From the NCBI GenBank assembly GCA_041648395.1, contig JBAZPC010000003.1, positions 12,801-76,800 of the forward strand: 64,000 bases of DNA. Reading direction: 5' to 3'. Under the pieces are notes generated by a model. The model did no database searches. It saw nothing but the letters and a program-made list of their open reading frames with translations, and was not told the origin of the DNA. The number at the start of each line of letters is the position of its first letter. Positions within the stretch are counted from its first letter, which is position 1. Below are positions 8,244-62,676 of the stretch, one piece after another. Source of the stretch: Minisyncoccota bacterium. Lineage in GTDB: Bacteria; Patescibacteriota; Minisyncoccia; UBA9983. The position numbers and the translations under genes were made by a program.

Positions 8244-9133
8244 CTAGTCCACTTTATATCTTTGTTTCTTTTAAACCAAGTCATTTGACGTTTGGCGTAT
8301 TGGCGGTTTTCTAAAATCATTTTTTCTAACATTTCTGTTTTATTAATCTTTCCTTGCAGAAACATTGCCGGATATTTGTATTCAAAACCGAGTTCATAAA
8401 GCCGTTTCCAACTTAATTTGGAGTCATGCAACCTTTTTGTTTCTTTAATTAAACCTTGCCGAAGCATTTTTTTAACCCGTTTTTCTATGCGTTTTTGCAA
8501 TTCTTTTTCCGGTAATTTAATGCCAATAAAAAGATACTGACTACTGACTACTGGATACTGACTACTAACTTTTGGCACCTTGCCAAGAGTTTTTGCTATC
8601 TCTATCGCCCTAATCAGCCGTCGCGGATTTTTTGCATCTATGTTTTTTGCCCTAATTGAATTTAACTTTTTCAGCATTTTGAATAATTTTTCCACAGGCA
8701 TTTTTTCCAGTTTCTTGCGCAATTTCCAATTTGGCGCCACTTCGGCGATTTGCATTCTACCCAGAAGAATATCAATGTAAAAACCAGTTCCGCCACAGAT
8801 GATCGGTGTTTTCCCGCGCGCTAAAATATCCGCAATCGCTTTCTCTCCACATCTTTTAAAGTCCAAGGCAGTAAAAATCTTTTTCGGCGAAGCAATATCA
8901 AGGCAATAATGTGACACGCCTTTCATTTCTTTTTTACTAATTTTCCCCGAGCCGATATTTAGCCCCTTATAAACCTGCCTAGAGTCAGCGGAAATAATTT
9001 CAGCTCGCCCTGACTTATCCCGAACATTGTTGAGGGAGCCGAGTCGAAGGGCAAACTTAACTGCCAGCTCGCTTTTACCAGAAGCAGTGGGTCCAATAAT
9101 GACGATAATTTTATCATTTGTCATTTTACGCAT
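8234..9133 (-). CDS. miaA: tRNA dimethylallyltransferase
   Basis: IIVIIGPTASGKSELAV P-loop, SADSRQVYKGLNIGSGKI. Contains an in-frame heptamer repeat tract. Confidence 0.85.
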   Translation of the reverse strand: MRKMTNDKIIVIIGPTASGKSELAVKFALRLGSLNNVRDKSGRAEIISADSRQVYKGLNIGSGKISKKEMKGVSHYCLDIASPKKIFTALDFKRCGEKAIADILARGKTPIICGGTGFYIDILLGRMQIAEVAPNWKLRKKLEKMPVEKLFKMLKKLNSIRAKNIDAKNPRRLIRAIEIAKTLGKVPKVSSQYPVVSSQYLFIGIKLPEKELQKRIEKRVKKMLRQGLIKETKRLHDSKLSWKRLYELGFEYKYPAMFLQGKINKTEMLEKMILENRQYAKRQMTWFKRNKDIKWTSGR

Positions 9134-9150
9134 ATGCTGAATTTGACTAA

Positions 9151-9987
9151 CTATTTTTGTTCAATATTTTCCAATGGACTTTTAATATTTCTAATTGCCG
9201 GATTGGTGACTTTGGTATAAAGTTGAGTCGTTCTAATATTTTGATGCCCTAATAATTCCTGCACATAACGCACATCCACACCGTTTTCTAATAAATGTGT
9301 GGCAAAACTATGGCGAAGAGAATGAAAAGTGGCGTCTTTTTGAATACCTGCCTTTTTTAATCCGTTTTCAAAAACTTTCTGTGCCGTGCGTTCCGTTAAT
9401 TTTCCTCCCCTGCCGTTCTCAAAAAAGTAATCGTCAACCGGTCTGCTTGTTGCTAAATTTATAATGTCATTTTTGAGCTTCTCGGGGAAAATAGTTATGC
9501 GGTCTTTATCTCCCTTTGCCCCCTTAATATGGATTGTTAATTCTTCAATATTTATATCTTTAATTCTCAAATTTGTTGCTTCACTAACTCGAAAACCGGT
9601 GCCATAAGATAAAGCGATAATTAATTTATGCTTCTGATTTGAAATTGCGTTTATAATATTTTCTATTTCTATCCGAGAAAGAACGACCGGAAGTTTTTTT
9701 GAAGTTTTGGCAAATTTCAAATCAACCGCAATAGCAGATTTCATTACATCGCGGTAAAAATATTTAATCGCGTTAAGATAAAGATTGATGGTTTGCGATG
9801 ATTGCCTCCTTTCCTGTTTTTCTAACAGATATTTTTTGATTACATCAATATTCGGATCTTTTCCAATGGTTCCGATAAAACGAAAAAAATCAGAAAGGCA
9901 TAAAAGGTAGCTCTTAATTGTCTTCCGGCTATAATTGCGCAATTTTAGCTCAATTTCAGTTTTTTGTAATAATTCTTGTAATTGCAT
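9151..9987 (-). CDS. tyrosine site-specific recombinase (XerC/XerD / phage-integrase family)
   Basis: C-terminal catalytic region HSLRHSFATHLLENGVDVRYVQELLGHQNIRTTQLYTKV (R..HxxR..Y). Ends with TAG. Confidence 0.8.
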   Translation of the reverse strand: MQLQELLQKTEIELKLRNYSRKTIKSYLLCLSDFFRFIGTIGKDPNIDVIKKYLLEKQERRQSSQTINLYLNAIKYFYRDVMKSAIAVDLKFAKTSKKLPVVLSRIEIENIINAISNQKHKLIIALSYGTGFRVSEATNLRIKDINIEELTIHIKGAKGDKDRITIFPEKLKNDIINLATSRPVDDYFFENGRGGKLTERTAQKVFENGLKKAGIQKDATFHSLRHSFATHLLENGVDVRYVQELLGHQNIRTTQLYTKVTNPAIRNIKSPLENIEQK

Positions 9988-10151
9988 AAAATTTATATTA
10001 TATTAAAACCAGTCGAAATTTAAGAAAATGCTATCATGTATTCGCACAATATACAAATTATAGCATATTAACAAACAATTATTCGCATAATAACGAGTTA
10101 GCTGAAATAGCAAAAAACAAAATTGGAAAAGTTATTTTTGGAAATTTTTTA

Positions 10152-10188
10152 ACAAAAAAATCCCGAGATAAAAATCATCTCGGGATTG
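10152..10188 (-). terminator. rho-independent terminator for the 10212..10574 gene
   Basis: AATCCCGAGAT...ATCTCGGGATT inverted repeat, U-run on the minus strand. Confidence 0.5.
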
Positions 10189-10211
10189 ATAATGGCTAAC
10201 CTGAACCGCGC

Positions 10212-10574
10212 CTAGATAGCGAGATAAACCTCTTTGATTGGCATTCCCTCGTAGGTGCATGGGAGGTCTTCGCGGTGAAGACGGAAAAATATTTGCCCAT
10301 CCTGCTTGGTTTCGACAAAGCCACCACCTGAAGCATACTTGTGACCATGGGTAACATCGATCACTTTCATTTCAGCGTTCAGCATACCAATCGCGACCTT
10401 GGCGTCGTACAGCTCAGAAAAGTTAGCTCCTTCTGTGGGCAAACATTTTTCCGGCGATCCGAACACTACACAGTATCCGATATCCTCGCTGATTTTTGCG
10501 AAAAATAGAAGCGTGTGCTCATCAGATACACCCTGTACTATTACAACACCCATCTTTCCAATCGTAACTTTCAT
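10212..10574 (-). CDS. hypothetical protein (120 aa)
   Basis: AGGAGG RBS, TAG stop. No recognisable motif. Followed by a 360-bp AT-rich spacer. Confidence 0.45.
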   Translation of the reverse strand: MKVTIGKMGVVIVQGVSDEHTLLFFAKISEDIGYCVVFGSPEKCLPTEGANFSELYDAKVAIGMLNAEMKVIDVTHGHKYASGGGFVETKQDGQIFFRLHREDLPCTYEGMPIKEVYLAI

Positions 10575-11937: not shown

Positions 11938-11941
11938 TTTA

Positions 11942-12002: not shown

Positions 12003-12023
12003 CCCCGCACTAAATTTTCCCGA

Positions 12024-13207: not shown

Positions 13208-14635
13208 CCTCACTTTTGATTTAATTTGTTTTCTGGCGAAAGTGGTTTTGGCGTGTTTAAGCCACTCGGCGCTCGGCTTTTTGTTTTTTTGCGTTTTGAT
13301 TTCAATGATATCTCCGTTTTTTAAGGTAGTATCCAATGACACAAATTTGTGATTAATGACGGCGCCGTTGGCGCTGTTGCCGATGTCGGAATGCACGGCG
13401 TAGGCGAAATCAATCGCCGTTGAACCTTCCGGCAGGTCAATAACATCACCTATGGGTGTAAAACAAAATACCCTGTCTTTAAAAAAATCTATTCTTAATG
13501 TTTCTAAAAAATCTTTTGAACCGGAAACGCCTGCCTGCCATCCGATAAGCTGATTTACCCAGGCGAGATGGGGATGAAATTTTCCGCCTTCGTCCGGCTT
13601 GCCCGATTCCGCGTAGGCCCAGTGGGCGGCAATGCCGTGCTCGGCCTCCTCGTGCATTTTTTCCGTCCGTATTTGAATTTCTATTATTATCCCGTCCGTG
13701 GCGAAGACGGTAGTGTGCAAGCTTTGGTAGCCGTTCGGTTTCGGCGTGGCGATGTAGTCCTTTATTCTTCCTGGCAAGGGTCTCCATAATTTATGGATTA
13801 TGCCGAGGATTTTATAACAGTCCTCAATGGTTTTGACGATGATTCTTATGGCAATGAAGTCGTAAATTTTATCTATATTCATTTCCACTTCCGGCGTCTG
13901 AAGTTTCTTGAATAAGCTGTAGAGATGCTTGACCCTTGAGTCCATTTTAAAATCTTTTACGCCGTTTTTTGAAAACTCCTTTTGCAGTTCTTTTTTCACT
14001 TTTTCCAAGTCCTTTTCTTTTTCTTCATATTTTTCTTTCAGTATTTTTATGATTTCTTTGTATTCTTCCGGATGGGCGAAGGGGAATGCCAAATCTTCAA
14101 GCTCTCCTTTCAACTCTCCCATACCCAGCCGGTTTGAGAGCGGGGCGAAAATTTCCAATGTTTCCACAGCGATTCTTTTTTGTTTTTCCTTCGGCACATG
14201 CTCAAGGGTCTCCATGTTGTGAAGGCGGTCGGCTAGTTTAATAAGAACAACGCGGATGTCTTTTGCCATAGCCAAAAACATTTTGCGCAGATTTTCAACT
14301 TGCCGTTCTTCACCGCGGTATTTTAACGTGCCGAGTTTTGTGACGCCGGCGACCAAAAAAGAAATTTCCTCCCCAAATTCTTTTTTCAATTGTTTCTCGG
14401 TTATTCCCGTGTCCTCATAGATGTCGTGAAGAAGTCCTGCGGAGATTGCCTTAGCGTCAAGTTGAAGGTGGGCAAGCGTTTTGGCGGTTTCAAAGGGATG
14501 GGCGAAATACGGCTCGTCGGAAAATCTTTTTTGTCCTTCATGTGCCTGCCTTGCGAACTCAAAAGCGCGGGTAATCAGATCAATATCCGCCCTTGATGGC
14601 CTTTTCAGAATGTTGATAATTTCGTTGACATCCAT
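13184..14635 (-). CDS. short bifunctional (p)ppGpp synthetase/hydrolase, Rel/SpoT family (HD + synthetase + TGS, no ACT)
   Basis: HD motif AGLLHDIYEDT. Synthetase motif DYIATPKPNGYQSLHTTV. TGS GDVIDLPEGSTAIDFAY. Confidence 0.85.
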   Translation of the reverse strand: MDVNEIINILKRPSRADIDLITRAFEFARQAHEGQKRFSDEPYFAHPFETAKTLAHLQLDAKAISAGLLHDIYEDTGITEKQLKKEFGEEISFLVAGVTKLGTLKYRGEERQVENLRKMFLAMAKDIRVVLIKLADRLHNMETLEHVPKEKQKRIAVETLEIFAPLSNRLGMGELKGELEDLAFPFAHPEEYKEIIKILKEKYEEKEKDLEKVKKELQKEFSKNGVKDFKMDSRVKHLYSLFKKLQTPEVEMNIDKIYDFIAIRIIVKTIEDCYKILGIIHKLWRPLPGRIKDYIATPKPNGYQSLHTTVFATDGIIIEIQIRTEKMHEEAEHGIAAHWAYAESGKPDEGGKFHPHLAWVNQLIGWQAGVSGSKDFLETLRIDFFKDRVFCFTPIGDVIDLPEGSTAIDFAYAVHSDIGNSANGAVINHKFVSLDTTLKNGDIIEIKTQKNKKPSAEWLKHAKTTFARKQIKSKVRSNRKIIY

Positions 14636-15095: not shown

Positions 15096-17262
15096 TATGC
15101 GGGTTATAGTTTGCGCACGATTTATTTGAACACCTTTCCGGAATTGTTTTTGTCCCCTCCATCATTAGCGAGCCGCAGGTTTTGCAAACATTTCCCGTAG
15201 GCCGTGATTTCATTATGAATCTGCATTTCGGATAATTATTGCAGGAAAAAAACGGGCCGAATTTGCCGCGGCGCTCCGTGATTTCCCCTCCGCCAGCTGG
15301 CGGATTGCATTTTGGGCATTTCACCCCCGTTTTTTCTTTTGCCTCCTGCTCCGCGCTTTTTTTAATAAATTTGCATTTCGGATAATTGTTGCAGGAAATG
15401 AATTTGCCGAAACGGCCTTCGCGTTCTATTAATTTTCCTGTCGCGCACTCCGGACACGCCTCGCCTGTTTCCTTTGGCCCTTCCATTATTGAACCGTCTA
15501 TTTTACGCGCGCCGGAGCATTTTGGAAATTTCGCGCAGCTCAAAAATCTTCCGTTGCGGGAAAGTTTTATAACCATTGGCCCTCCGCAGACGGGGCATTT
15601 GTGCTCATCGCCGGCCTCACCAAGGTTCGTTATTTTCTCCGCCGTTTTTTCTTTTAATTTCACGTCTTTGGAAAACGGTCCGTAGAAGTCCTTCAGCATT
15701 TTCTCGTATTTTCTTTTCCCTTCGGCTATTTCGTCCAGCTCTTTTTCCATCTCGGCGGTGAACGAGTCGCTGATGTATTGAGCAAAATTTTGTTCCAAGA
15801 AATCGCTTACCACTTCGCCGGTGTCGGTGGGCTTCAGCGCTCTGCCTTCTTTAATGACATAACCGCGGTCGTTGATTGTTTTTATTATTGAAGCGTAAGT
15901 GCTCGGCCGGCCGATGTCTCTTTTCTCCAACTCCTTGATTAGGCCCGCCTCGGTGTATCTCGGCGGCGGCTCGGTTTGCTTCCCTTCGCTTCCAATATTC
16001 AATAACTCCAAAGATTCTCCTTTTGTCAGCTTCGGCAACTCCACATCCTCTCCGCGCGCCGCTGGATCGGCGACAAGCCAGCCAGGGAAAATCATAATAC
16101 TGCCGTTTGCGGAAAAATTTGGAATTTCTCCTTCATCTATATTGGCGCTCACTTTTGTCCGCAGAATTTTCGCGTCCGCCATCTGCGAGGCGACAGTTCT
16201 CTCCCAAATGAGTTTGTAAAGTTTTTTCTGCTCGTCGTTCGCGCCGGCGGATTTCATTCCGAAATTTGTCGGCCGTACCGCTTCGTGCGCTTCCTGCGCC
16301 GTTTTGCTTTTTGACGCGTAGGTACGTGGCAACAAAAATTCTTTTCCGAATTGTTTTTCAATCGTCGCGTAAATTTGCGGTAGCGCTTCTTTGCTGACAT
16401 TTACGCTGTCGGTTCTCATGTAAGTGATAAGACCTTGTTCGTAAAGTTTTTGGGCGACGGACATCGTGCGCGACGGCGCGTATCCCAAGCGCGAGCTGGC
16501 GGTTTGCTGGAGAGTTGAGGTAATGAACGGCGGCCGCGGCGAACGCTTTGCTTCGGTTTGGGTTACATCAACTATTTGCCATTTATTTTTTTTGGCGGCT
16601 TCAATAATTCTTTCCGTTTCTTTTTCGTTTTTTGGCTGTTCATCGCAAGTGAGAATTATTTTATCTTTATTTTCAGTGGAAAATTCTCCGCTTATTACCC
16701 AAAAATTTTCCGGAACAAAAGCGCGAATTTCGCGTTCGCGTTCCATAATTATGCGCAGGGCGGGGGATTGCACACGCCCCGCGGATAGCCCGTAACGGAC
16801 TTTTTTCCATATCAAGCCACTCAAATCGTAGCCGACCAGGCGGTCCAAAACACGGCGCGCCTCTTGCGCCTTCACTAAATCCGCGTCAATATCGCGCGGA
16901 TGTTTTATTGCTTCTTTTATCGCGCTTTCGGTAATTTCGTTAAAAACGATGCGTTTCGGTTTTTTCAGCTCACATGCTTCTTTGATGTGCCAGGCAATCG
17001 ATTCTCCCTCGCGGTCGGGGTCGGTGGCGAGAATGACTTCGCTGGCTTTCTTTGAGAGATCTTTTATTTCTCTGATGACTTTTTCTTTTCCGTGAGAGAT
17101 TTCATAGCGGGGAACAAAGCCGGCAGGGATGTCGATGGCCGTCTTGTTGCTTTTCGGCAGATCGCGAACATGCCCCACGCTGGCGCGGATAATATATTCG
17201 TCTCCCAAATATTTTGAGATTGTTTTTGTTTTTGTCGGCGATTCAACAATAACTAGTTTCAT
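15088..17262 (-). CDS. topA: DNA topoisomerase I with multiple C-terminal zinc ribbons
   Basis: TOPRIM start MKLVIVESPTKTKTISKYLG, catalytic Tyr region, C4 zinc-ribbon repeats. Contains the PPAGG palindrome. Confidence 0.9.
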   Translation of the reverse strand: MKLVIVESPTKTKTISKYLGDEYIIRASVGHVRDLPKSNKTAIDIPAGFVPRYEISHGKEKVIREIKDLSKKASEVILATDPDREGESIAWHIKEACELKKPKRIVFNEITESAIKEAIKHPRDIDADLVKAQEARRVLDRLVGYDLSGLIWKKVRYGLSAGRVQSPALRIIMEREREIRAFVPENFWVISGEFSTENKDKIILTCDEQPKNEKETERIIEAAKKNKWQIVDVTQTEAKRSPRPPFITSTLQQTASSRLGYAPSRTMSVAQKLYEQGLITYMRTDSVNVSKEALPQIYATIEKQFGKEFLLPRTYASKSKTAQEAHEAVRPTNFGMKSAGANDEQKKLYKLIWERTVASQMADAKILRTKVSANIDEGEIPNFSANGSIMIFPGWLVADPAARGEDVELPKLTKGESLELLNIGSEGKQTEPPPRYTEAGLIKELEKRDIGRPSTYASIIKTINDRGYVIKEGRALKPTDTGEVVSDFLEQNFAQYISDSFTAEMEKELDEIAEGKRKYEKMLKDFYGPFSKDVKLKEKTAEKITNLGEAGDEHKCPVCGGPMVIKLSRNGRFLSCAKFPKCSGARKIDGSIMEGPKETGEACPECATGKLIEREGRFGKFISCNNYPKCKFIKKSAEQEAKEKTGVKCPKCNPPAGGGEITERRGKFGPFFSCNNYPKCRFIMKSRPTGNVCKTCGSLMMEGTKTIPERCSNKSCANYNPHKK

Positions 17263-18906: not shown

Positions 18907-18980
18907 GCTAGGGAAGCTCAAGTGGCAAGAGCGCCAGACTCTAAATCTGGAGGTTGGCGGTTCAAATCCGCCCCCTGGCA
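18907..18980 (+). tRNA. type-I tRNA with anticodon CUA (reads UAG; putative amber suppressor, amino-acid identity unknown)
   Basis: Acceptor GCTAGGG/CCCTGGC (U3-G70), disc A73. D arm GCTC-AAGTGGCAA-GAGC. Anticodon arm CCAGA-CTCTAAA-TCTGG. Variable loop AGGTT. T arm GGCGG-TTCAAAT-CCGCC. Confidence 0.7.
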
Positions 18981-21531: not shown

Positions 21532-23268
21532 CTAGAATTTATAAATAAATATTGACGAGCCTGCTCGAGCAACCGGTTCTTTTCCTTTCAGCCAGGAATA
21601 AGTGTCATCCGGTTTTATCGTGAATCCGCGCACAGGTTTTGCTATTGAGCCCTCGCGGGCGTTGGCGGATATGGCAAACCACGAGCCGGCGGACGGCTGA
21701 CCTTTTGATGACCACCAATCCTCATATTTGTCGCCGAAATAATATTTGCCGTCGCCGCCGCCGAAATAATGCAAATCAATTTTGTTGACGCTGTTCTCGT
21801 CCATCCAATCGCGCAGCCGCTTCATATCCTGTCCCCAGTCGTAATTTGAGTCGGTGGCGATTTTATAACCGTTGGCCGTACCGCCGGCAAGAATATTGTA
21901 ATAAGAAAGATAGTAAGGATAAGTGACGATTGTTGAAATAAACATAACGGCAAGCAAAATCCCCGTGAGTATGGTTTTGTTAAATTTGGCTATCACTAGC
22001 GCCACTAAAAAATAAGCGAAGGGCAGAATCGGCATAATGTGACGATGGCCGATATTTAAATTTCCGGTGATTGATTGGAAAACGTAGAAGGCGATAAAAA
22101 ATAAACTGGCGATGATGGTAAAATTATTCTTCATCCATTCGCGCGAAAAAGTTGAGCGCCCTCCTGCGCGGGCAAGAGAAATACTTTTTATGGCAAAGAA
22201 AATGGCGATAATAGTGAGAATATGAAAAATCAAACTTTCTTTGAATAGATAAAGGGTCGGGAAATACCATGGCGTCGCTTCGGAATAAACCGTTCCCATA
22301 AAATGCGAAGCGTTTCCTCCGCCCGCGCGTTGAACCACGGAAACGACGCCGAACAAATATTCAGCCAATGGTTTCAAAACATTCGTTCTTATCATCCACG
22401 CAAACGCAGGCATTGTTTTTCTGCCTAAATTGGAAGAGAGGGTGTCGCTTATGTCTTTTATTTGCAGGTCGCTCGGATAATTCCAGACGTGAAAAATATA
22501 AACAATATAAACAAGCGCCAAAGCAATCAATCCAATCATAATTATTTTCCAGAGTAAAGATAAAATTTTTCCCCTGTTAAGAATCCACCACAGCGCGACA
22601 AGGACAAAAAATATGGGCGCCAGGATGACGGTGGAAAATTTAAAAAGCAAGGCGACGCCCAAAAGCGCGCCGGCGATAAAAACATTTCTCCACGACTGAT
22701 TTTTTAAAAAAGCCAAAAAAGAGGCGATGGCGATAAAAAATCCGAAGGCCGCCGCCATGTCCGTGGTGACGTAGCGCGAGTGGGCGATGATGGTTGGTGA
22801 CATAGTGAAAAGGAAAAGTGTGAGAAAGCCAACTTTATCTCCGTAATTTTTTCGCGTCCAATAAAACAAAATCGCGCCGAACAAAACGGCAAGCAGTATC
22901 ATAGGCAGGCGGGCGAGACGGATTATTTTATCCGCGTCATTACCCGCTCGGTATAGAAAAATCTTTCCCATATCCCATTGGCGGCTAGAAATTTTTTCGC
23001 TCCAAGTCGGAATGTTTGTCGGAAAATTAAGATTTAAAAACATAAGCGGAAGAGCGGAAATGTCTTTCATTAACGGCGGGTGTTCAGGATTGAGGCGCAT
23101 ATCTTTCTGTGTCAGATAGGAATAGCCGGCGGGGATGTGCGCCACTTCGTCAAAAGTGGCAGTTTCGTCCCAAGCGGAAAGGAACGACAGCGCGAACATC
23201 AGCGCCAGCAGGCCGCCCGCGGCGATCCGCCAGCCGGCGGATACAAAATTGTTTTTTATTTTATCCAT
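21532..23268 (-). CDS. GT-C family membrane glycosyltransferase (PMT/ArnT-like)
   Basis: ~12 predicted TM helices and a C-terminal soluble domain. Tandem with a second GT-C gene. Confidence 0.6.
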   Translation of the reverse strand: MDKIKNNFVSAGWRIAAGGLLALMFALSFLSAWDETATFDEVAHIPAGYSYLTQKDMRLNPEHPPLMKDISALPLMFLNLNFPTNIPTWSEKISSRQWDMGKIFLYRAGNDADKIIRLARLPMILLAVLFGAILFYWTRKNYGDKVGFLTLFLFTMSPTIIAHSRYVTTDMAAAFGFFIAIASFLAFLKNQSWRNVFIAGALLGVALLFKFSTVILAPIFFVLVALWWILNRGKILSLLWKIIMIGLIALALVYIVYIFHVWNYPSDLQIKDISDTLSSNLGRKTMPAFAWMIRTNVLKPLAEYLFGVVSVVQRAGGGNASHFMGTVYSEATPWYFPTLYLFKESLIFHILTIIAIFFAIKSISLARAGGRSTFSREWMKNNFTIIASLFFIAFYVFQSITGNLNIGHRHIMPILPFAYFLVALVIAKFNKTILTGILLAVMFISTIVTYPYYLSYYNILAGGTANGYKIATDSNYDWGQDMKRLRDWMDENSVNKIDLHYFGGGDGKYYFGDKYEDWWSSKGQPSAGSWFAISANAREGSIAKPVRGFTIKPDDTYSWLKGKEPVARAGSSIFIYKF

Positions 23269-24734: not shown

Positions 24735-24764
24735 TGATTTATATTTTATCGTATAATTAAAACA

Positions 24765-25130
24765 ATGGAAAGCGAAATTGAATATCTTAAACAAAGGATT
24801 GCGGAGCTGGAGAAGCAGGACGTTAATAAAGAAAAGCCGGAGATAATAAAAGAGGCGATTAATGAGCATGTTGAAAAACAGCCGAAGGAGTTTTCCGGCG
24901 CGGAGCAAAAATTTTCCCAGCAGGAAATACAAGCACGCTCTCAAAAAATAAGTGAGATGAAATCGGGGGAGGCGGGACACAATGACCAGGTGGCCGAACT
25001 TCTTCAAATCGCGCATGATAAGGGAATCCTGAACGCCGTTTCTGTAGTTAGGGCGACAGACGACCCGCACCTTGAAGACGAATTTCACGACGCGCTGGTA
25101 AAATATTTCCAAAACGTTAAAAATGTTTAG
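24765..25130 (+). CDS. hypothetical coiled-coil protein (121 aa)
   Basis: Heptad-rich N-terminus. Overlaps the next gene start by 8 nt (operon). Confidence 0.4.
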   Translation: MESEIEYLKQRIAELEKQDVNKEKPEIIKEAINEHVEKQPKEFSGAEQKFSQQEIQARSQKISEMKSGEAGHNDQVAELLQIAHDKGILNAVSVVRATDDPHLEDEFHDALVKYFQNVKNV

Positions 25131-42909: not shown

Positions 42910-43075
42910 CTCCCCCTCATCATTTATTTTTAAGATGCGAAAATCGCACTTTACTTTCTATAAAATAGTGTAGCAAATTACGCAACAAAAGTCAATATCA
43001 AGCAATATTATAATTGGACAAAATTCTGCTATCGCCGAAAAGTGTCCAAGTGCCAAAAAATAAATACTTTCTACT

Positions 43076-47700: not shown

Positions 47701-47764
47701 AAATGTTAAGGTGAAGATGGAAAGTAAGATTGAAAATTGAAAATTAAATAAGGAGGATTTAGAG

Positions 47765-50076: not shown

Positions 50077-50863
50077 GTTTTTTCAAGATTTTTATATCTT
50101 CCGTTACTTCCGGATAATCGGTCTCGCAGATGAGGTCGTTTTTTTGTTTTTTGGCGAAGGCGGCGATTTGCGCGAAACCCTCCATGCCGATTTTTCCTTT
50201 GCCGATGTGCTCATGCCTGTCTTTGCGCGAGCCGAGGTCGGTGGCGCTGTCGTTGGCGTGGATGAGTTTTATGTTTTTGAAGTTAATGCTGCCGGATTTC
50301 CAATCATAACCGGAAGCGAAGCCGTGTTGAGTGTCCAAGCAGATGCCGGCAAGAGCGGGCGATTTTATTTTACTTAAAATTTCTTCAATTTCTTTTATAT
50401 CCGCGCCAATTATTTTTCCCGCGCCGGCGGAATTTTCAATGAGTAACTTCGCGCTCCCATTGTATCCGTCCAAAACTTTTTCCAAACCCTCTATTACTTT
50501 TTTTATTGCTTCTGCGTTTTCCATTTCCTTTGCCGAGCCGAGATGGGTCATGACGTATTTCGCGCCAAGCAGGGAAGCGCGCTCCAGTTCTGTTCTAATC
50601 GCGCTTATTGAACCATATCTTATCCTGTTATCGGTGGAGGCGAGATTTATATAATAGGGCGCGTGGATGTAGACATCGTGTAACCCGTAACGTGTAACGC
50701 GTAACTTGAAATTTTTTACAACTTCTGGAGTGAGCTCCTGACCGCTTCCGCCCTGTGGCGGGCGGGAAAAAATCTGCATCACCTCGCAACCCAACTCTCG
50801 CGCCATCTTTGGCGCGTTCTCAATCCCTCCCCGTATGGACACATGACAACCAACTCGTGTCAT
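50060..50863 (-). CDS. nfo: endonuclease IV (AP endonuclease family 2)
   Basis: HAPYYINLAS, LIENSAG, ICLDTQHGFASG, HANDS metal-binding motifs. Contains a heptamer repeat tract. Confidence 0.85.
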   Translation of the reverse strand: MTRVGCHVSIRGGIENAPKMARELGCEVMQIFSRPPQGGSGQELTPEVVKNFKLRVTRYGLHDVYIHAPYYINLASTDNRIRYGSISAIRTELERASLLGAKYVMTHLGSAKEMENAEAIKKVIEGLEKVLDGYNGSAKLLIENSAGAGKIIGADIKEIEEILSKIKSPALAGICLDTQHGFASGYDWKSGSINFKNIKLIHANDSATDLGSRKDRHEHIGKGKIGMEGFAQIAAFAKKQKNDLICETDYPEVTEDIKILKKLISSR

Positions 50864-52864: not shown

Positions 52865-53104
52865 TTATTTTAAAAGAAGTCCACCGAGTTTTTCTCCACT
52901 TAATTCGTACTCGATTTGCGACTTGTAAATTTCTTCATCTTTGTTGGTGGGGATAGATGCGAGAGCAACCATGTATCCCAAAAGATATGATCTTCTCGCT
53001 CTGAGAACTTTTATTTCCTCGGCAATGCGCTCTTTTTTTGTTCTTTTTTGATCAAGAATAAAACCAAGAGCAAGTAAAACGATGCCTATAAAAATAATCT
53101 CCAT
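52865..53104 (-). CDS. hypothetical small membrane protein
   Basis: N-terminal TM. RBS GGAGG. Confidence 0.35.
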   Translation of the reverse strand: MEIIFIGIVLLALGFILDQKRTKKERIAEEIKVLRARRSYLLGYMVALASIPTNKDEEIYKSQIEYELSGEKLGGLLLK

Positions 53105-53131: not shown

Positions 53132-53211
53132 GCAAGATTTTATCCCACCAAGGCAAGATTTTATCCCACCAAGGCAAGATTTTATCCCACCAAGGCAAGA
53201 TTTTATTCTGC
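53132..53211. repeat. intergenic 21-nt tandem repeat GCAAGATTTTATCCCACCAAG, 3 perfect units plus 1 partial
   Basis: Units at 53132-53152, 53153-53173, 53174-53194, partial 53195-53211. Lies in the divergent promoter region between 52865(-) and 53286(+). Confidence 0.75.
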
Positions 53212-53285: not shown

Positions 53286-53834
53286 ATGAAAAACATAAAA
53301 AAATGGGTATTGGCAATTTCTATTGTAGTCGTTTTGAACTTATTTTTTAATTACGGAATCTATACATTTTATAAAAATCCAAAATTTGAAAATTTTTGCA
53401 AACCGGAATTAAACAGCAATTTTTACACAACGAGGCAAGCATGTGAAGCGGTTGGCGGTTTATGGAATGAAAATTTTCCAAAAGCTGTTCCGATGCCGGC
53501 GGCTCCCGCTGAAAATGTCCGAACGGGAAATATCCAAACCGGCTATTGCGACGTTTATCACACCTGCCAGAAAGATTTCAATAAAACTGAAGCTATTTAC
53601 AACAGAAATGTTTTTATTATTTTAGTGCCACTCGGATTAATTTCTCTAGTAGTGGGATTACTGATGGGAATTTCTGGAGCCGTTTCAACAGGGCTCTCCT
53701 TCGGCGGTATTTTGTCCATGATAATCGGCTCCATAAGATATTGGTCTGACATGAATGATTACTTGAGGTTCGGTTTGCTCGGAGTGGCGCTTATTATTCT
53801 CATCTGGCTGGGTATCAGAAAATTCAAGGATTAG
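53286..53834 (+). CDS. hypothetical membrane protein
   Basis: N-terminal TM, Cys-containing ectodomain, two C-terminal TMs. Confidence 0.4.
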   Translation: MKNIKKWVLAISIVVVLNLFFNYGIYTFYKNPKFENFCKPELNSNFYTTRQACEAVGGLWNENFPKAVPMPAAPAENVRTGNIQTGYCDVYHTCQKDFNKTEAIYNRNVFIILVPLGLISLVVGLLMGISGAVSTGLSFGGILSMIIGSIRYWSDMNDYLRFGLLGVALIILIWLGIRKFKD

Positions 53835-53838: not shown

Positions 53839-56352
53839 ATGAATCCGTACAGCCATAAAAAAATTGAAAAGAAGTGGCAAAAGTATTGGGAGAAAAATAA
53901 ACTTGACCAGGCGAAAGATTTTTCCAAAAGGCCTAAATATTATTGTCTCGTAGAATTTCCTTATCCGTCGGGAGACGGCTTGCATGTAGGCCACACTCGA
54001 AGCTATACTGCCATGGATATAATTGCCCGCAAAAGAAGAATGCAGGGCTACAACGTGCTTTATCCCATGGGCTGGGACGCTTTCGGTTTGCCGACGGAAA
54101 ATTACGCTATTAAAAAAGGAGTTCACCCAAGCGTTATTACAAAAAAGAATACAGATAATTTTAGAAGGCAATTAAAATCATTAGCTTTTTCTTTTGATTG
54201 GAGCAGGGAAATAAATACTACCGACCCGAAATATTATAAATGGACGCAGTGGATATTTTTGCAGCTTTTTAAGAAGGGCTTGGCGTACAAGCATAAAATG
54301 CCGATAAACTGGTGCTTGTCTTGCAAAGTCGGTTTGGCGAACGAGGAGGTGGTGGACGGCAAGTGCGAGCGTTGCGGGGGGCAGACGGAAAAAAGGGAAA
54401 AAGAGCAATGGATGTTGGCCATAACGAAATACGCCGACCGGCTAGATAAGGATTTGGATCCGCCAGCTGGCGGATTAGATTATCTGGAAAAAATAAAAAT
54501 CCAGCAGAGAAATTGGATAGGGAAATCAGAAGGAGCGGAGATTGAATTCAAGATTCAAGATTCAAGTTTCAAGTTTCAAGTTTTTACCACACGCGTTGAT
54601 ACTATTTTTGGTTGCACTTATGTAGTTGTTGCGCCCGAGCATGAGATAATCTCAAAACTAAAATCGCAAATATTAAATCTGAGCGAAGTTGAAAAATATA
54701 TTAATGAAGCGAAAAGAAAATCAGACCTGCAAAGGACGGAATTGCAAAAAGAAAAAACTGGCGTTGAATTGAAGGGCATGAAAGCCATTAATCCTTTCAA
54801 TAATGAAGAAGTGTCGGTGTTTGTGGCGGACTATGTTTTGGGGCATTATGGCACAGGCGCGGTAATGGCCGTCCCCGCGCACGACGAACGCGATTTTGAA
54901 TTCGCGAAGAAATATGGATTACCGGTGCGGCAATCGGTCGCCAGAAATTCTAATTTCTTAAGGACGGACGACGAGGGAAATCCTACGAAATCAGAAATTT
55001 CTGGCTCCCTTAGTGAGTGTTTTGTTGAAGATGGCGTCCTTGCTGATTCCGGCCAGTTTTCCGGCCTGACTTCTGCCGAGGCGTGCGGGGAGATGGTGAA
55101 ATGGCTGGAGGAAAAGAAGTTGGGGAAAAAAGTGGTTAAATTTCACTTGCGCGACTGGGTTTTCTCCCGCCAGCATTATTGGGGCGAGCCGATACCGATA
55201 GTGAATTGTCCAAAATGCGGCCTAGTACCGGTGCCGGAAAAAGATTTGCCGGTAAAATTGCCTGATGTAAAAAAATACGAACCGACTGACACGGGCGAAT
55301 CGCCGTTGGCGGCTATTTTAAAATGGGTGAATGTAAAATGCCCGAAGTGCAAAGGTCCGGCAAAAAGGGAAACCGACACCATGCCAAACTGGGCGGGATC
55401 GTCTTGGTATTATCTCGCATATTTAATGCTCGAAAATAAAAAATCAAATCTCAAAAATCAAAAATATGTTTGGGATAAGAAAAAATTAAAATATTGGATG
55501 CCCGTTGATTGGTACAACGGCGGAATGGAGCACACAACTTTGCATTTATTATATTCACGATTTTGGAATAAATTTTTATTTGACATCAAGGCGGCGCCGA
55601 CAAGCGAGCCGTATAAAAAAAGAACTTCGCATGGAATGATACTTGGACCGGACGGAGAGAAGATGTCCAAGTCGCGCGGCAATGTGATAAATCCGGACGA
55701 TATGGTTTCCGCTTATGGCGCAGACGCTTACCGTTTGTACCAAATGTTTATGGGGCCGTTTGATCAAGCGATACCATGGGACCCGAAAGGCATTGAAGGC
55801 ACGAGTAGGTTTTTGGGAAGAGTGTGGAAGTTGTTATCAGCCGTCAGCTATCAGTCGTCAACCAAAGAGCAAAAGCTGAAAGCTGAAAGCGGAAAGCTGA
55901 AGACTTTATTGCACAAAACCATCAAAAAAGTTTCTGAAGATATTGAAAGCATGCGGTTCAACACAGCTGTCAGTTCACTCATGATTTTATCAAACGAGAT
56001 GGAGAAACAGGAAGAAATACTGACTACTGATTACCTAATACTGGTTACTCTTTTAAGTCCTTTTGCTCCTCATATCTGCGAAGAAATTTGGAGCAAGCTT
56101 GGTAACAAAAAATCAATCTTTTTGGAAAAATGGCCGAAGTTTGATTCCCAAAAAATAAGAGAAGATAGTTTTGAATTGGTGATGCAAGTGAACGGCAAAG
56201 TGAGAGACAGGTTTGAGGCGCCGACGGATATTTCCGAAAATGACGCCATGTTATTGACATTGAAACGCGAAAATGTTAAAAAGTGGATAGGCGATAAACA
56301 AGTCAAAAAAGTCATATTTATCCAAAATAAGCTGATAAATTTAATAGCATAA
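53839..56352 (+). CDS. leuS: leucyl-tRNA synthetase
   Basis: HVGHTRSYT (HIGH), KMSKS. Editing domain. Carries the 18-bp palindrome and two heptamer tracts. Confidence 0.9.
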   Translation: MNPYSHKKIEKKWQKYWEKNKLDQAKDFSKRPKYYCLVEFPYPSGDGLHVGHTRSYTAMDIIARKRRMQGYNVLYPMGWDAFGLPTENYAIKKGVHPSVITKKNTDNFRRQLKSLAFSFDWSREINTTDPKYYKWTQWIFLQLFKKGLAYKHKMPINWCLSCKVGLANEEVVDGKCERCGGQTEKREKEQWMLAITKYADRLDKDLDPPAGGLDYLEKIKIQQRNWIGKSEGAEIEFKIQDSSFKFQVFTTRVDTIFGCTYVVVAPEHEIISKLKSQILNLSEVEKYINEAKRKSDLQRTELQKEKTGVELKGMKAINPFNNEEVSVFVADYVLGHYGTGAVMAVPAHDERDFEFAKKYGLPVRQSVARNSNFLRTDDEGNPTKSEISGSLSECFVEDGVLADSGQFSGLTSAEACGEMVKWLEEKKLGKKVVKFHLRDWVFSRQHYWGEPIPIVNCPKCGLVPVPEKDLPVKLPDVKKYEPTDTGESPLAAILKWVNVKCPKCKGPAKRETDTMPNWAGSSWYYLAYLMLENKKSNLKNQKYVWDKKKLKYWMPVDWYNGGMEHTTLHLLYSRFWNKFLFDIKAAPTSEPYKKRTSHGMILGPDGEKMSKSRGNVINPDDMVSAYGADAYRLYQMFMGPFDQAIPWDPKGIEGTSRFLGRVWKLLSAVSYQSSTKEQKLKAESGKLKTLLHKTIKKVSEDIESMRFNTAVSSLMILSNEMEKQEEILTTDYLILVTLLSPFAPHICEEIWSKLGNKKSIFLEKWPKFDSQKIREDSFELVMQVNGKVRDRFEAPTDISENDAMLLTLKRENVKKWIGDKQVKKVIFIQNKLINLIA
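54458..54475. repeat. 18-bp perfect palindrome ATCCGCCAGCTGGCGGAT inside leuS (encodes DPPAGG)
   Basis: Self-complementary. Related copies at 11468-11483, 15289-15304, 44415-44430, 62793-62809. Confidence 0.85.
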
Positions 56353-58578: not shown

Positions 58579-58602
58579 GATAGGGATTGCCTGTTTAAAA
58601 TA

Positions 58603-59253: not shown

Positions 59254-60376
59254 AAAACTGAAAGTTTTTGTGGGGATGAGCGGGGGCGTGGACTCTTCTG
59301 TGGCGGCTTTGCTTTTACAAAAACAAAATTATGACTTGGTTGGCTGTTTTATAAAGGGCTGGTACCCGCCCGCCTTCGCAAGCTCAGGCGTTGCGGGCGG
59401 GCCCGCTGGTTTTTATTGTTCCTGGAAAGAAGACAGGCGTGACGTCATGCGCGTGTGCGCCAAGCTCGGCATTCCATTCATCACCATTGATGCGGAAAAA
59501 GAGTATAAGCGCGACGTGGTTGATTACATGCTGCGCGAATACAAGGCGGGACGGACGCCGAATCCCGACGTAATGTGCAATAAAAACATCAAGTTTGGAA
59601 TTTTTTTAAAAAAAGCGCTGGCGATGGGGGCGGATTACATAGCCACAGGGCATTATGTGAAAATTGAAAATTGTAAATTGAAAATTGCTCATGATTTAAA
59701 CAAAGACCAATCTTATTTTCTTTGGACGCTTACGCAAAAGCAATTAAAATACTGCCTTTTTCCGATTGGCGATTTATCAAAACCGCAGGTAAGGGAATTG
59801 GCGAGAAAAAATAATTTGCCCACGGCGGAAAAAGACGAAAGCATGGGTGTTTGTTTTATCGGCGAATTCCCGATGGCGGATTTTCTTAAGAAATATATAA
59901 AAACAAAAAAGGGGAAAGTGGTTACAACAGAGGGGAAGATTATCGGCGAACATGAAGGCGTGATGTTTTATACTATCGGTCAACGTCATGGTTGGGGCGG
60001 GCTTGCCCGCCGAAGCTTTAGCGAAGGCGGGGTGCCGTATTATATCGTGGCAAAAGACATTAAGAAAAATTTAATTATAGTAGCGGATAAAGCGAGCGAG
60101 GAAAATTTTTACAAAAAAGAAGTGGAAATAGAAAATGTAAATTGGATTTCCGGGAAAACGCCACTTGGAAACTTAGTTTCCAAGTTATACAAAGCGCGTA
60201 TTAGATACCGCCAGCCGTTGCAAAATTGCCGCATTAAAATTACAAAAGATGAGAAAAATCAGCGATCGCATAATTATCGAATCTTTTTTACTAGGCCACA
60301 AAGGGCGGTAACCTCGGGTCAGTCGTTGGTTTTGTATGACGGGCAAACAATGCTCGGCGGAGGGATTATAAAATAA
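59243..60376 (+). CDS. mnmA: tRNA-specific 2-thiouridylase MnmA
   Basis: VFVGMSGGVDSSVAA PP-loop. Catalytic Cys context. Carries a GC-rich element and a heptamer tract. Confidence 0.85.
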   Translation: MASKKLKVFVGMSGGVDSSVAALLLQKQNYDLVGCFIKGWYPPAFASSGVAGGPAGFYCSWKEDRRDVMRVCAKLGIPFITIDAEKEYKRDVVDYMLREYKAGRTPNPDVMCNKNIKFGIFLKKALAMGADYIATGHYVKIENCKLKIAHDLNKDQSYFLWTLTQKQLKYCLFPIGDLSKPQVRELARKNNLPTAEKDESMGVCFIGEFPMADFLKKYIKTKKGKVVTTEGKIIGEHEGVMFYTIGQRHGWGGLARRSFSEGGVPYYIVAKDIKKNLIIVADKASEENFYKKEVEIENVNWISGKTPLGNLVSKLYKARIRYRQPLQNCRIKITKDEKNQRSHNYRIFFTRPQRAVTSGQSLVLYDGQTMLGGGIIK

Positions 60377-60452
60377 GTTGCAAAAAACTGGATAATTTGG
60401 TAGGAATAAAAACAGAAAGAAGCTTAAAAATTTCAAATAAGAAGGAGGATGT

Positions 60453-60887
60453 ATGGTAAAATTGATTGTTTTGGAAACGGATACAACAGAGGAAAACCTT
60501 TTCTTTAACTTAGTCAGCCGCGGGAGATGGGATAGGCCTTATTATTTTTCGGTGGACAATTACGACTGGAGCAAAGGAGTAGTCACTTTTTCAATGCTTT
60601 GCTGTTCGCCGTCGCCTGTAATGAAAGTGGGTATTGCTGGAAATCTGATTGTAACGAGTGAAAAATGTATTGAAGAATTAAAGGATTGGTTGAAAGAATG
60701 GGGCGTACAATCAAGAAAGAAAATGACAAGGTCTTTCTTAGAACCAGCAAAAGCTCAGACCTTTCACAAAAAGTTAAGAGAAGAAGTTTCCGAAAAAGAA
60801 AGGCAAAAGGCAGGAGAAAGGGTTGCAAAAAGGATCAAAAGTTTTCTAAGTGCGGTAGATGAGGACCTTTTGGCAATGTGCAGATAA
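60453..60887 (+). CDS. hypothetical protein (144 aa)
   Basis: RBS AAGGAGG. Upstream promoter-like motif related to the 18258/18849 copies. Terminator downstream. Confidence 0.4.
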   Translation: MVKLIVLETDTTEENLFFNLVSRGRWDRPYYFSVDNYDWSKGVVTFSMLCCSPSPVMKVGIAGNLIVTSEKCIEELKDWLKEWGVQSRKKMTRSFLEPAKAQTFHKKLREEVSEKERQKAGERVAKRIKSFLSAVDEDLLAMCR

Positions 60888-60960
60888 AGGCGATTTTGTA
60901 AAAGCGGGGAGATGATATCAAGCCGCTTTTTATTTTTTGTATTTTATTTATAATACTCTT

Positions 60961-62676
60961 ATGACTTCCCATGAAATTCGTGAAAAATTCTTAAAGTTTT
61001 TTGAGGAAAAAGGGCATGCGGTTATTCCGTCTGCCTCTTTGATTCCTTCGGAAACAGACCCAACTGTGCTTTTTACCACTGCCGGCATGCACCCGTTGGT
61101 GCCTTATCTTTTAGGTGAGGAACATCCAGGCGGGAAGCGCGTGGCGAATTCGCAAAAATGCATCCGCACGGGCGACATAGACGAAGTGGGCGATGAAAGC
61201 CATCTCACTTTTTTTGAAATGTTGGGAAATTGGTCATTTGGGGACTATTTTAAAAAAGAAGCGATTGAATGGAGCTGGGAGTTTTTAACGGATAAAAAAT
61301 GGCTGGGGATTGATAAAAATAAATTAAGCGTGACGGTTTTTGAAGGCGACTCAAACGCCCCGCGCGATGAAGAATCGGCGCAAATTTGGCAGTCACTCGG
61401 CGTGCCAAAAGAAAAAATTTTTTATAAAGGAAAAGAAGATAACTGGTGGGGGCCGGCGGGCGCGACAGGGCCGTGCGGACCATGCACGGAAATGTTTATA
61501 GATAATATGGAGGTGTGGAATGACGTTTTTATGCAATACAACAAAACGGCGGATGGCAGTTTTGAACCACTCAAGCAAAAACCTGCCCGCAATGCTACGC
61601 ATAGCGTTGCAGGCGGGAATGTTGATACGGGGATGGGGCTGGAAAGAATCGCCATGGTGATACAGGGCGTCAATTCAGTTTACGAAACGGATTTGTTTGC
61701 GCCGATAATAAATAAAATAGAAAAGCTATCAGCAAACAGCTATCAGCTATCAGCTAAATCTTATCGCATTATCGCCGACCATATTAAGGCGAGCGTATTT
61801 ATAATTGCCGACGGGGTGATGACGTCCAATACAGGTAAAGGATATGTTTTACGTCGCTTAATAAGGCGCGCGGTAAGACACGGAAAATTATTGGGTATAG
61901 AAAAAGATTTTACAAAAGAAATTGCCGAGGTTGTTGTTGAAATTTATAAAGAACATTATCCAGAGGTAAAGAATAACGAATCAAGAATTATGAATGAATT
62001 GGAAAAAGAGGAAAAGAAATTTAAAGAGACATTAGAAAAAGGTCTGAAAGAATTTGAAAAAGGAACGGAACCATTTATTCTTTTTACGACCTTCGGTTTT
62101 CCGTTTGAATTAACCCAAGAGTTGGCAAAGGAAAAGGGGATTAAAATTGATATTGAAAATTTTAATGAGCAATTAAAAGCTCATCAACAGCTTTCCCGCA
62201 CGGCTTCCGTGGGTATGTTTAAGGGCGGGTTGGCGGACGCGGGTGAGATGACCACAAAATATCATACTGCCACGCATTTGCTTTTGGCGGCGTTAAGAGA
62301 GATTTTAGACGGGGATATAATTCAAAAAGGGAGTAATATCACAGCCGAGCGTTTGCGTTTTGATTTCAATTATCCGCAAAAAATAACAGACGAGCAGATT
62401 AAAAAAATTGAGGACTTAGTTAATGAAAAAATTCAGGAAAAAATTCCGGTGGAAATGATTGAATTGCCGAAAGAAGAAGCGTTGAAGGCGACCAAGTCGT
62501 CTTTTGATGAAGGTAAATACGGAGATATTGTGAAAGTTTATAAAATAGGAAATTTTAGCGTGGAATTGTGTGGCGGACCCCATGTCGCCAATACCGGCGA
62601 ACTCGGCCGTTTTAAAATCACCAAAGAAGAAGCGTCTTCTGCGGGCGTGCGGAGAATCAAGGCGGTATTGGAGTAA
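60961..62676 (+). CDS. alaS: alanyl-tRNA synthetase, short form (catalytic + editing core, no C-terminal domain)
   Basis: MTSHEIREKFLKFFEEKGH, class II motifs, editing HxxxH...CGGPH. Contains a heptamer tract. Confidence 0.85.
   Translation: MTSHEIREKFLKFFEEKGHAVIPSASLIPSETDPTVLFTTAGMHPLVPYLLGEEHPGGKRVANSQKCIRTGDIDEVGDESHLTFFEMLGNWSFGDYFKKEAIEWSWEFLTDKKWLGIDKNKLSVTVFEGDSNAPRDEESAQIWQSLGVPKEKIFYKGKEDNWWGPAGATGPCGPCTEMFIDNMEVWNDVFMQYNKTADGSFEPLKQKPARNATHSVAGGNVDTGMGLERIAMVIQGVNSVYETDLFAPIINKIEKLSANSYQLSAKSYRIIADHIKASVFIIADGVMTSNTGKGYVLRRLIRRAVRHGKLLGIEKDFTKEIAEVVVEIYKEHYPEVKNNESRIMNELEKEEKKFKETLEKGLKEFEKGTEPFILFTTFGFPFELTQELAKEKGIKIDIENFNEQLKAHQQLSRTASVGMFKGGLADAGEMTTKYHTATHLLLAALREILDGDIIQKGSNITAERLRFDFNYPQKITDEQIKKIEDLVNEKIQEKIPVEMIELPKEEALKATKSSFDEGKYGDIVKVYKIGNFSVELCGGPHVANTGELGRFKITKEEASSAGVRRIKAVLE

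Follow-up and report, generated by a model that had tools for sequence, protein, structure and literature searches.

The DNA examined here is a 64,000-nucleotide (nt) stretch of contig JBAZPC010000003.1, hereafter the window, from a metagenome-assembled genome of Candidatus Paceibacterota (Parcubacteria, candidate phyla radiation (CPR)), a tiny-genome groundwater bacterium. It contains miaA, fmt, def, nfo, leuS, mnmA and a short-form alaS, each identified by an NCBIfam equivalog or subfamily match, in agreement with the gene names of the initial annotation. Within these genes lie short tandem arrays of heptanucleotide units. Tandem Repeats Finder returned 12 period-7 arrays in the window, with 3.1–5.3 copies and 70–96% matches, and all 12 are coding, being translated in frame within the seven genes (Table 1). 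Nine of them coincide with tracts already annotated in miaA, fmt, nfo, leuS, mnmA and alaS, whose quoted translations, imperfect 7-residue duplications, match ours; the arrays of def, of leuS site 2 and at alaS 61967 are additions. The sole intergenic tract of the window, at 47729, has 2.4 copies. The annotation had called such a location in essential enzymes unusual, a view that our analysis supports. Eleven of the 12 arrays fall within the final 20 kb (41948–61988) and none between 9 and 41.9 kb, a clustering that may reflect gene content, with its aminoacyl-tRNA synthetases and tRNA-modification enzymes.

The arrays were confirmed to be real, and 7 is the only enriched period in the window. 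A match/mismatch detector recorded five strong arrays at period 7 and none at periods 4–6 and 8–15, and 20 dinucleotide shuffles of the window gave at most 0.05 arrays per shuffle, with none at period 7. In a lag scan with a threshold of 18 or more matches out of 21, lag 7 gave six segments, and lags 4–6 and 8–12 gave none. With the threshold lowered to 15–16 of 21, lag 7 gave 13–14 segments and the other lags 0–7, except for the harmonic at 14; this looser scan added two weak tracts, at 23732 and 47729. The initial annotation had allowed for assembly artefacts. That the genome is metagenome-assembled invites general caution, but an independently assembled megahit contig from the European Nucleotide Archive is 100% identical across 14.5 kb that include five arrays, the open reading frames (ORFs) are intact, and orthologous arrays were found in dozens of unrelated metagenomes. 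Given this identity and the near absence of arrays in shuffles and at control lags, we rejected chance or artefact as their source, to which we attach a negligible probability.

Table 1 Positions of heptanucleotide arrays and other features in the window and in loci of relatives
Feature	Position	Strand	Unit, copies and matches	Remarks
miaA array	8535–8570	-	coding unit AGTAGTC/GTCAGTA, 5.1 copies, 82%	encodes VSSQYPVVSSQY
Decayed weak tract, low confidence	23732–23762	-	GTAACGC on + strand, ~2.5 units	in ORF 23256–25112; lag-7 scan
fmt array, site 2	41948–41979	-	coding unit CCAAGCT, 4.6 copies, 88%	encodes ASSKLQALSSK
fmt array, site 1	42191–42227	-	coding unit TTCAAGW, 5.3 copies, 76%	encodes LDSSFMIQVSRFK
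fmt array	42252–42281	-	coding unit ATGGAAC, 4.3 copies, 82%	encodes LWNMEHKTWNI
def 3'-end array	43064–43090	-	coding unit AAGTATA, 3.9 copies, 90%	stop codon inside
Intergenic short tract	47729–47745	+	ATTGAAA, 2.4 copies	only intergenic instance in window; 5 nt upstream of AAGGAGG ribosome-binding site, gene start 47765
nfo array	50680–50705	-	coding unit TTACGCG/GTTACNC, 3.7 copies, 84%	encodes KLRVTRYGLH
leuS array, site 1	54547–54583	+	TTCAAGW, 5.3 copies, 96%	encodes FKIQDSSFKFQVF, hairpin directly before VFTTR
leuS array, site 2	55433–55465	+	AAAATCA, 4.7 copies, 80%	encodes ENKKSNLKNQKY
leuS array, site 3	55872–55901	+	AAAGCTG, 4.3 copies, 91%	encodes QKLKAESGKLK
mnmA array	59658–59687	+	TGAAAAT, 4.3 copies, 91%	encodes VKIENCKLKIA
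alaS array	61724–61756	+	AGCTATC, 4.7 copies, 84%	encodes KLSANSYQLSAK
Weak alaS array, least convincing member	61967–61988	+	TAAAGAA, 3.1 copies, 80%	
GC-rich hairpins/palindromes	54458–54475 (leuS), 62793–62811, 41666–41708 (fmt), 33892–33957			in-frame in housekeeping genes
GC-rich hairpins/palindromes	59364–59402 (mnmA), 61582–61617 (alaS), 43369–43410 (def); also 7004–7053, 41153–41192			
tRNA gene, anticodon CUA (amber)	18907–18980	+		ARAGORN label 'Pyl'; Rfam tRNA 65.6 bits
Perfect 21-bp tandem repeat	53132–53206		GCAAGATTTTATCCCACCAAG, 3.6 copies	without internal 7-nt period
IS200-like Y1 transposase genes of relatives	L163 11029–11730; L165 1645–2352 (also L166, L167)	-		233–235 residues, PF01797, HUH and Tyr motifs

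Site mapping by sequence alignment to solved homologues (3D3Q, 4HNO and 9HLV) showed that the array sites coincide with indel-rich segments of the protein families. (An AlphaFold model of Fmt built from a 16-sequence alignment was too poor, with a pLDDT of 59, and was left unused.) The miaA array sits in a variable linker ahead of the β-strand LFIGI and adds two residues relative to PDB 3D3Q. The two N-terminal fmt arrays add three residues each, that at 42191 against the closest relatives and that at 42252, which aligns to the helix after the PDKPKGRK loop, against relatives. The length change is zero at fmt 41948, against relatives, and, as a net value against orthologues, at leuS 54547. The nfo array comes without insertion (two residues fewer than PDB 4HNO), as does, on balance, the mnmA array (five fewer than PDB 9HLV). 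Three arrays go with larger gains: seven residues (21 nt) at leuS 55433 against most orthologues, about eight at leuS 55872 against orthologues, and 11 (33 nt) at alaS 61724 against the orthologue in L163 (L001 to L167 denote metagenomic DNA loci of relatives; P0122 and P0137, used below, are protein relatives). With most net lengths near zero or small, most window arrays take over variable segments rather than lengthen them. The annotation had pictured three heptamers forming an insert of 21 nt that keeps the frame; the frame is indeed kept, but a 21-nt insert fits few tracts, leuS 55433 among them. The def array differs in having a visible source. Its unit equals the native C-terminal codons ...GAA AAG TAT (EKY) of relatives' def, and the array starts in the last native codons, provides the TAA stop and continues into the 3' untranslated region.

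Each 7-nt unit is translated in all three frames in turn. We rebuilt every array as a perfect repeat and translated it in frame, and four of these perfect versions hold an in-frame stop: miaA (TAG, where the actual codon is TAT), leuS 55872, mnmA and alaS 61967 (TAA). A mismatch at a stop codon is guaranteed because the gene is intact; what is informative is that at leuS 55872 (GGA for TGA) and in mnmA (TGT for TGA) the deviation that abolishes the stop is the only departure from periodicity. These results bear on the idea that selection favours 7-residue protein repeats, such as heptad-like helices or strand–turn units, with the DNA period as a by-product. Some repeats do show a/d-type hydrophobic spacing (ISNLKSQ, LQALSSK), and the LeuRS site 1 peptide fits a β-hairpin. 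However, a 7-residue repeat implies a DNA period of 21 nt rather than 7 nt, the same heptamer read in three frames yields unrelated residues, some arrays would encode stops if perfect, and arrays are denser in non-coding DNA, as described below. The 7-nt period and the common non-coding arrays led us to reject this idea, which we regard as very improbable. The data support DNA-level heptamer repeats filtered by translation, not protein-level repeats.

To place the arrays in their lineage, we compared them with relatives. Eighty metagenomic loci (661 kb) encoding Fmt relatives with 45–72% identity contain 63 arrays at period 7 and at most 13 at any other period. Forty of the 63 lie inside fmt, at two positions corresponding to residues ~72–87 and ~154–168 of the window Fmt, which are those of the window tracts 42191 (site 1) and 41948 (site 2); site 2 accounts for 28 of the relatives' period-7 arrays. 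The units vary by lineage, with TTACGCG, TACTGAC, CCTACCA and CTACAAG at one site and AATCTCA, AATTTCC, GAAGCAC, AAATTCG and AAGAATC at the other, and some of these arrays are perfect repeats. At site 1 relatives carry arrays, hairpin doublets or GC hairpins, and more distant Fmt relatives (≤51% identity) have ordinary sequence at both positions. The three LeuRS sites act likewise, both in protein relatives and in DNA loci, so that overall the same protein positions hold heptamer arrays in relatives at 45–80% amino-acid identity. The tracts are not recent events private to this genome; the arrays are lineage-wide.

LeuRS site 1 spans 63 nt with five heptamers in nearly all relatives, and its unit reads TTCAAGW in the window and L163, TTCAAAA in L162, TTCAGAA/TTTAGAA in L165 and TTTCAAA in L001 and L005. 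Within a lineage 4–5 units have the variant in common; it is AAG for the window and L163, AAA for L162 and AGA for L165. Because the units lie in different frames, protein selection cannot yield such shared variants, and the pattern is one of concerted evolution. Site 2 is patchy. Its array is common to the window and L165, where it is 96% perfect, L163 has a different unit (ATTTAAA), and the closest relative, L162 (81% identity), lacks the array and has the canonical FLRYIDPKNNK instead; the array-bearing YYLAY...VWD version is common to the window and a 64% relative. This distribution suggests recombination between lineages or repeated origin. Site 3 of relatives contains decayed heptamers, hairpin doublets or GC hairpins.

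Larger insertions also occur in these proteins. At LeuRS site 1, P0122 carries an inserted ASCH-like domain (PF04266) and P0137 an inserted α/β-hydrolase domain; many other relatives, 940–1000 residues long, contain a NUDIX domain (PF00293). The simplest common denominator of the sites is a small set of tolerant protein positions.

Period 7 is favoured over other periods in the window and in ~0.8 Mb of related loci. The window has 188 period-7 arrays per Mb and the Patescibacteria sets 92–95, against 20 in Firmicutes control loci fetched by the same leuS query. Once the hot spots in fmt and leuS, by which the loci had been retrieved, are set aside, ~0.88 Mb of Patescibacteria loci contain 17 non-coding and 22 coding arrays, with only 8.7% of the DNA being non-coding; the per-base array density in relatives is therefore ~8-fold higher in non-coding DNA. 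Such an excess points to a process that is not aimed at genes, and survivorship is the best reading both of the kept frame and of the hot spots. How arrays change is seen in L165 and L166, which are 99.85% identical over 16.4 kb and whose only multi-base indel is a single 7-nt unit in an intergenic (AGCTTTT)n array. A slippage-type process therefore exists in the lineage. The annotation had proposed slippage or a targeted, frame-constrained insertion; the former is likely, while targeting and frame constraint are at odds with the density in non-coding DNA and are better read as selection.

Some intergenic arrays of relatives have a distinctive arrangement. In L165 those at 14515–14604 and 16339–16428 form inverted pairs around a central palindrome; in L161 intergenic heptamer arrays lie at 9298–9327 and 4017–4123. 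The inverted-pair arrays lie between convergent or tandem genes, and the L161 array at 9298, made of TTAGTNA units, is directly upstream of a Shine–Dalgarno sequence.

We consider it moderately probable that the arrays are heptanucleotide repeats resembling the short tandemly repeated repetitive (STRR) sequences of cyanobacteria, produced and kept uniform by slippage of whole units, with selection for an open frame acting as a filter at those protein positions that tolerate them. A 7-nt-specific mutational process, most likely strand slippage in replication or repair, would duplicate or delete units anywhere in the genome. Arrays would accumulate freely in non-coding DNA and would survive in coding DNA only where the protein can accommodate a stretch of low complexity, in alleles that keep the frame and are free of stop codons. 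An established array would last very long at its site, kept homogeneous by repeated contraction and expansion or by conversion, and would gradually displace the native sequence of a length-constrained segment. As unit-wide changes would never be silent in a homogenised array, its divergence would be slowed. This explanation builds on what we observe: only period 7 is favoured, arrays survive in frame, their hot spots are orthologous, their units evolve in concert, two strains differ by one unit, and arrays are enriched in non-coding DNA. We infer that slippage generates the arrays and that selection alone accounts for the hot spots. We count in favour of slippage the stop-removing deviations, the reading of units in all frames and the growth of the def array from EKY codons. 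The same holds for folding: the arrays do not fold (z −1.6 to +0.5), whereas the GC hairpins of the same genes, used as a control, fold strongly (z −4.3 and −7.2), and hairpin formation by the arrays was rejected on this ground.

Several observations weigh against this explanation. The first is a vocabulary of units shared between unrelated sites. When 100 arrays from related genomes are sorted into 51 site classes, a 14-mer is common to 22 pairs of non-orthologous classes. The number expected is 5.3 ± 2.3 pairs if unit columns are shuffled and 2.9 ± 1.7 if genomic heptamers are drawn at random, and 22 was not reached in any of 500 nulls. The annotation had noted shared cores in either orientation, and these are weak within the window alone (P 0.03–0.26) and strong across the 100 arrays. 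In the window three families occur twice, namely TTCAAGW (leuS 54547 and fmt 42191), TTACGCG (nfo and the tract at 23732) and TGAAAAT (mnmA and the tract at 47729). The nfo unit also appears at Fmt site 1 of L082, L085 and L088 and in leuS of L163, and the miaA unit TACTGAC at Fmt site 1 of L083 and L084. Both orientations relative to translation are used (GAAAATT in mnmA, AATTTTC in fmt), even at one site: the mnmA position holds GAAAATT units in the window and reversed AATTTTC-type units of the same family in L001. A 31-nt array of the irregular unit AATGRCC occurs in L116, within fmt, and in L165, within an intergenic spacer; the two copies match at 30 of 31 positions, and the mreB genes of these loci are only 65% identical.

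Conservation is a second difficulty for slippage. AATCTCA-family arrays are 82–100% identical where the Fmt catalytic core is 66–83% identical, and L085 and L097 share an array at 33 of 33 nt, with identity stopping at the array edges. By itself, homogenisation is not expected to make arrays of different species diverge more slowly. Since every unit position serves in turn as first, second and third codon base, no unit-wide change is silent and divergence is slower; the all-frame translation of a homogenised array is thus a partial explanation, and function or drive may contribute. Slippage also leaves unexplained why the period is 7 rather than 5, 6 or 8, and, in an essential gene, going from one unit to four requires either that several units be gained at once or that intermediates without function be passed through. 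Finally, 13 strain-level variants of LeuRS were compared, and their coding arrays are invariant in length. A comparison of copy numbers between strains, of the kind proposed in the annotation, returned one difference, in the intergenic L165/L166 array, and none in these coding arrays. Phase variation was rejected on related grounds: the genes are essential housekeeping genes, the arrays are short and imperfect, and the 13 variants show no variation. A local origin of units is clear for def, but the shared vocabulary contradicts local origin as a general rule, and a sequence-specific process that disperses units may be at work.

The array sites attract other small elements as well. At the Fmt, LeuRS and MnmA positions relatives hold three kinds of small in-frame insertion: hairpin doublets of ~40 nt (CTTGGACAT...ATGTCCAAG, TTGGCGGTTAAACCGCCAA, CAAAGGTTAAACCTTTG), GC-rich palindromes of 14–21 nt that encode PPAGG-like peptides, and one 21-nt GC palindrome within a heptamer array (L107 vs L109). 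In each doublet a hairpin precedes its own reverse complement, an arrangement resembling a repetitive extragenic palindromic (REP) doublet forming a hairpin (REPIN). Doublets occupy fmt site 2 in L087, L091, L096, L106, L108, L126 and L158, fmt site 1 in L089, L099–L104, L107, L109, L112 and L114, and both leuS site 3 and mnmA in L163. The identical CAAAGGTTAAACCTTTG doublet occurs in two different L163 genes, so doublets behave as dispersed elements. GC-hairpin insertions into arrays add exactly 21 nt and no extra unit (L093 vs L095, L107 vs L109), and we dropped the idea that the arrays are transposon footprints with a 7-bp target duplication. GC-rich hairpins are present in the window too (Table 1), in a genome of 42% GC. 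Their peptides are PPAGG-like or PPAFASSGVAGGPAGF-like, several share sequence (CCCGC..GCTCAGGCGTTGCGGGCGGG; CCTGCCCGAYGGCAAGGCGGGC), and the PPAGG insert of LeuRS is found in some relatives only. In two related lineages, represented by L163 and by L165–L167, genes for Y1_Tnp proteins lie a few kb from leuS. These proteins may be partners of the hairpin elements in the manner of REP-associated tyrosine transposases (RAYTs). A search of candidate ORFs against Pfam, together with tblastn, detected no Y1 transposase, be it in the 64 kb of the window or in the remaining 160 loci. Hairpins and arrays may be linked mechanistically.

The shared vocabulary and the hairpins together raise an alternative to slippage, in which the arrays are copies of a dispersed, sequence-specific family of elements, spread in either orientation by conversion or by copying of a mobile-element kind that may be linked to REP/REPIN-like hairpins and IS200-like Y1 transposases. 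Coding arrays would then be in-frame survivors of insertion and not local expansions. Such a family would account for a limited set of units recurring at non-orthologous sites and in different genomes, for the three families found twice in the window, for the near-identical 31-mer at unrelated loci and for the reversal at the mnmA site. The inverted intergenic pairs around a palindrome in L165 fit as well, as do hot spots that also hold hairpin doublets and GC palindromes (including the 21-nt palindrome inside an array), the doublet repeated in two L163 genes and the Y1_Tnp genes near leuS. Yet the arrays lack hairpin potential, defined ends and target duplications, and a transposase or Y1_Tnp homologue is absent from the window and the other 160 loci. 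Moreover, the def array clearly arises from native codons, unit-wise indels do occur, the units of orthologous arrays vary in small steps, as they would under descent, and unit sharing within the window alone is not significant. We regard copying of this kind as rather unlikely, though worth stating in its fullest form. In that form, which we put forward just as tentatively, a 7-nt-unit family would spread between loci, perhaps between CPR genomes, kept nearly invariant by drive or function and joined by tiny hairpins at fixed landing sites in essential genes of Parcubacteria; such a function might, for example, be to mark DNA for recognition in uptake or recombination, or to be recognised by a heptamer-reading protein.

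Function could also be primary. The arrays might be nucleic-acid motifs kept by selection or drive, for instance binding sites of a protein that reads 7-nt units, elements of translational control at ribosome-binding sites, or signals for uptake and recombination in organisms reliant on imported DNA, with genic arrays accommodated at tolerant sites by analogy with DNA uptake sequences. The parallels with uptake sequences would be indirect: both orientations, accommodation at tolerant sites and inverted intergenic pairs such as those of L165. A functional motif would explain nucleotide conservation that exceeds that of the catalytic core and ends exactly at the array edges, as well as the limited vocabulary in both orientations. 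Consistent with it are the arrays directly upstream of Shine–Dalgarno sequences (window 47729 and L161 9298), as with TAACTGA in Beggiatoaceae (PMC4679880), and patchiness at LeuRS site 2 that is compatible with recombination. On the other hand, no binding protein, phenotype or rule of strand or position was identified, many different units would need to be recognised, coding arrays decay without replacement in some lineages (L162), and all-frame translation with homogenisation can account for the conservation. We therefore consider a functional origin improbable, and unit-wise slippage with filtering at tolerant sites remains the explanation we favour.

Two further features of the window deserve mention. 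A tRNA gene with the anticodon CUA (Table 1) may encode a suppressor tRNA; TAG still serves as the stop in 8 of 56 long window ORFs, which excludes a wholesale reassignment of amber. The perfect 21-bp repeat lies upstream of leuS, in the divergent intergenic region between a small membrane-protein ORF (52865–53104, minus strand) and the ORF 53286–53834, and looks iteron- or operator-like.

To our knowledge, heptamer repeats have been an unexplained oddity of bacteria since their description in cyanobacteria, and neither the choice of seven, nor their spread, nor their role is understood. An array in a universally conserved gene has a precisely defined orthologous address, which can be found in hundreds of genomes. 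How arrays arise, are homogenised, decay and are replaced can thus be traced against a protein alignment, which is impossible for intergenic repeats. What was unexpected is their deep persistence at the same protein positions, a conservation above that of the catalytic core and a vocabulary common to unrelated sites. The same addresses also gather tiny hairpins and whole domains, pointing to a few tolerant sites through which CPR proteins change. In practical terms, the tracts are frameshift-prone spots in essential genes and will affect gene calling and alignment in the CPR.

As cited in PMC4679880 and PMC4692102, Mrazek 2007 describes heptanucleotide repeats as the most abundant class of long simple sequence repeats in many bacteria and proposes polymerase slippage. 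Among known systems, our arrays are most like the STRR sequences of heterocystous cyanobacteria, with tandem 7-nt units in 3–8 copies, a favoured period of 7 and a few families dispersed through the genome. STRR sequences are described as mainly intergenic, and units in multiples of three as typical of coding DNA, whereas the window arrays reside in frame in essential genes, at positions conserved over a deep lineage and in a CPR host. TAACTGA direct repeats, known from marine Beggiatoaceae, cyanobacteria and some Bacteroidetes (PMC4679880), similarly consist of 2–6 heptamers at many genomic sites, often just upstream of start codons; their phylogenetic distribution is patchy, without an evident transfer mechanism, and reverse copies are translated as a 7-residue repeat (PMC4679880). 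They differ in having one dominant unit per genome, with stops in all frames in one orientation, and in lying largely in intergenic DNA or genes for hypothetical proteins, where we find many families in housekeeping enzymes. The GGGAATC/GGGGAYT repeats of Xanthomonas and Nostoc (PMC4692102) resemble ours in over-representation, conserved positions, variation in length and sequence, and some convergent inverted pairs, but they are G-rich, quadruplex-forming and intergenic (PMC4692102), while the present arrays are AT-rich, unstructured and coding. All three of these repeat types have been described as mainly intergenic (PMC4679880, PMC4692102); it is the inverted pairs and the Shine–Dalgarno-adjacent arrays of our relatives that recall the Xanthomonas and Beggiatoaceae repeats.

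Comparison can be extended to repeats of coding regions. At contingency loci, such as the HMW1A heptanucleotide repeats of Haemophilus influenzae (PMC8262952), repeat number likewise shifts by whole units. Contingency tracts are, however, long, perfect and polymorphic and switch expression of surface or accessory genes from within them or their promoters, whereas the arrays here are short, imperfect, located in essential genes and invariant among 13 variants. Rickettsia palindromic elements also are small repeats lying in frame at tolerant sites of coding genes, and hairpins similar to REP/REPIN elements, which are hairpin doublets mobilised by RAYT/Y1 proteins (PMC3116915), share hot spots with arrays in our relatives. 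Unlike either, the arrays are tandem, non-palindromic and non-folding, and a RAYT-like gene was not seen in the window. A search of the literature in the searchable library for a link between CPR or Parcubacteria and heptamer repeats found nothing. Relative to known heptamer repeats, what is new here is the host lineage, the in-frame residence in essential genes at conserved addresses, and the measurable concerted evolution and conservation that these addresses reveal.

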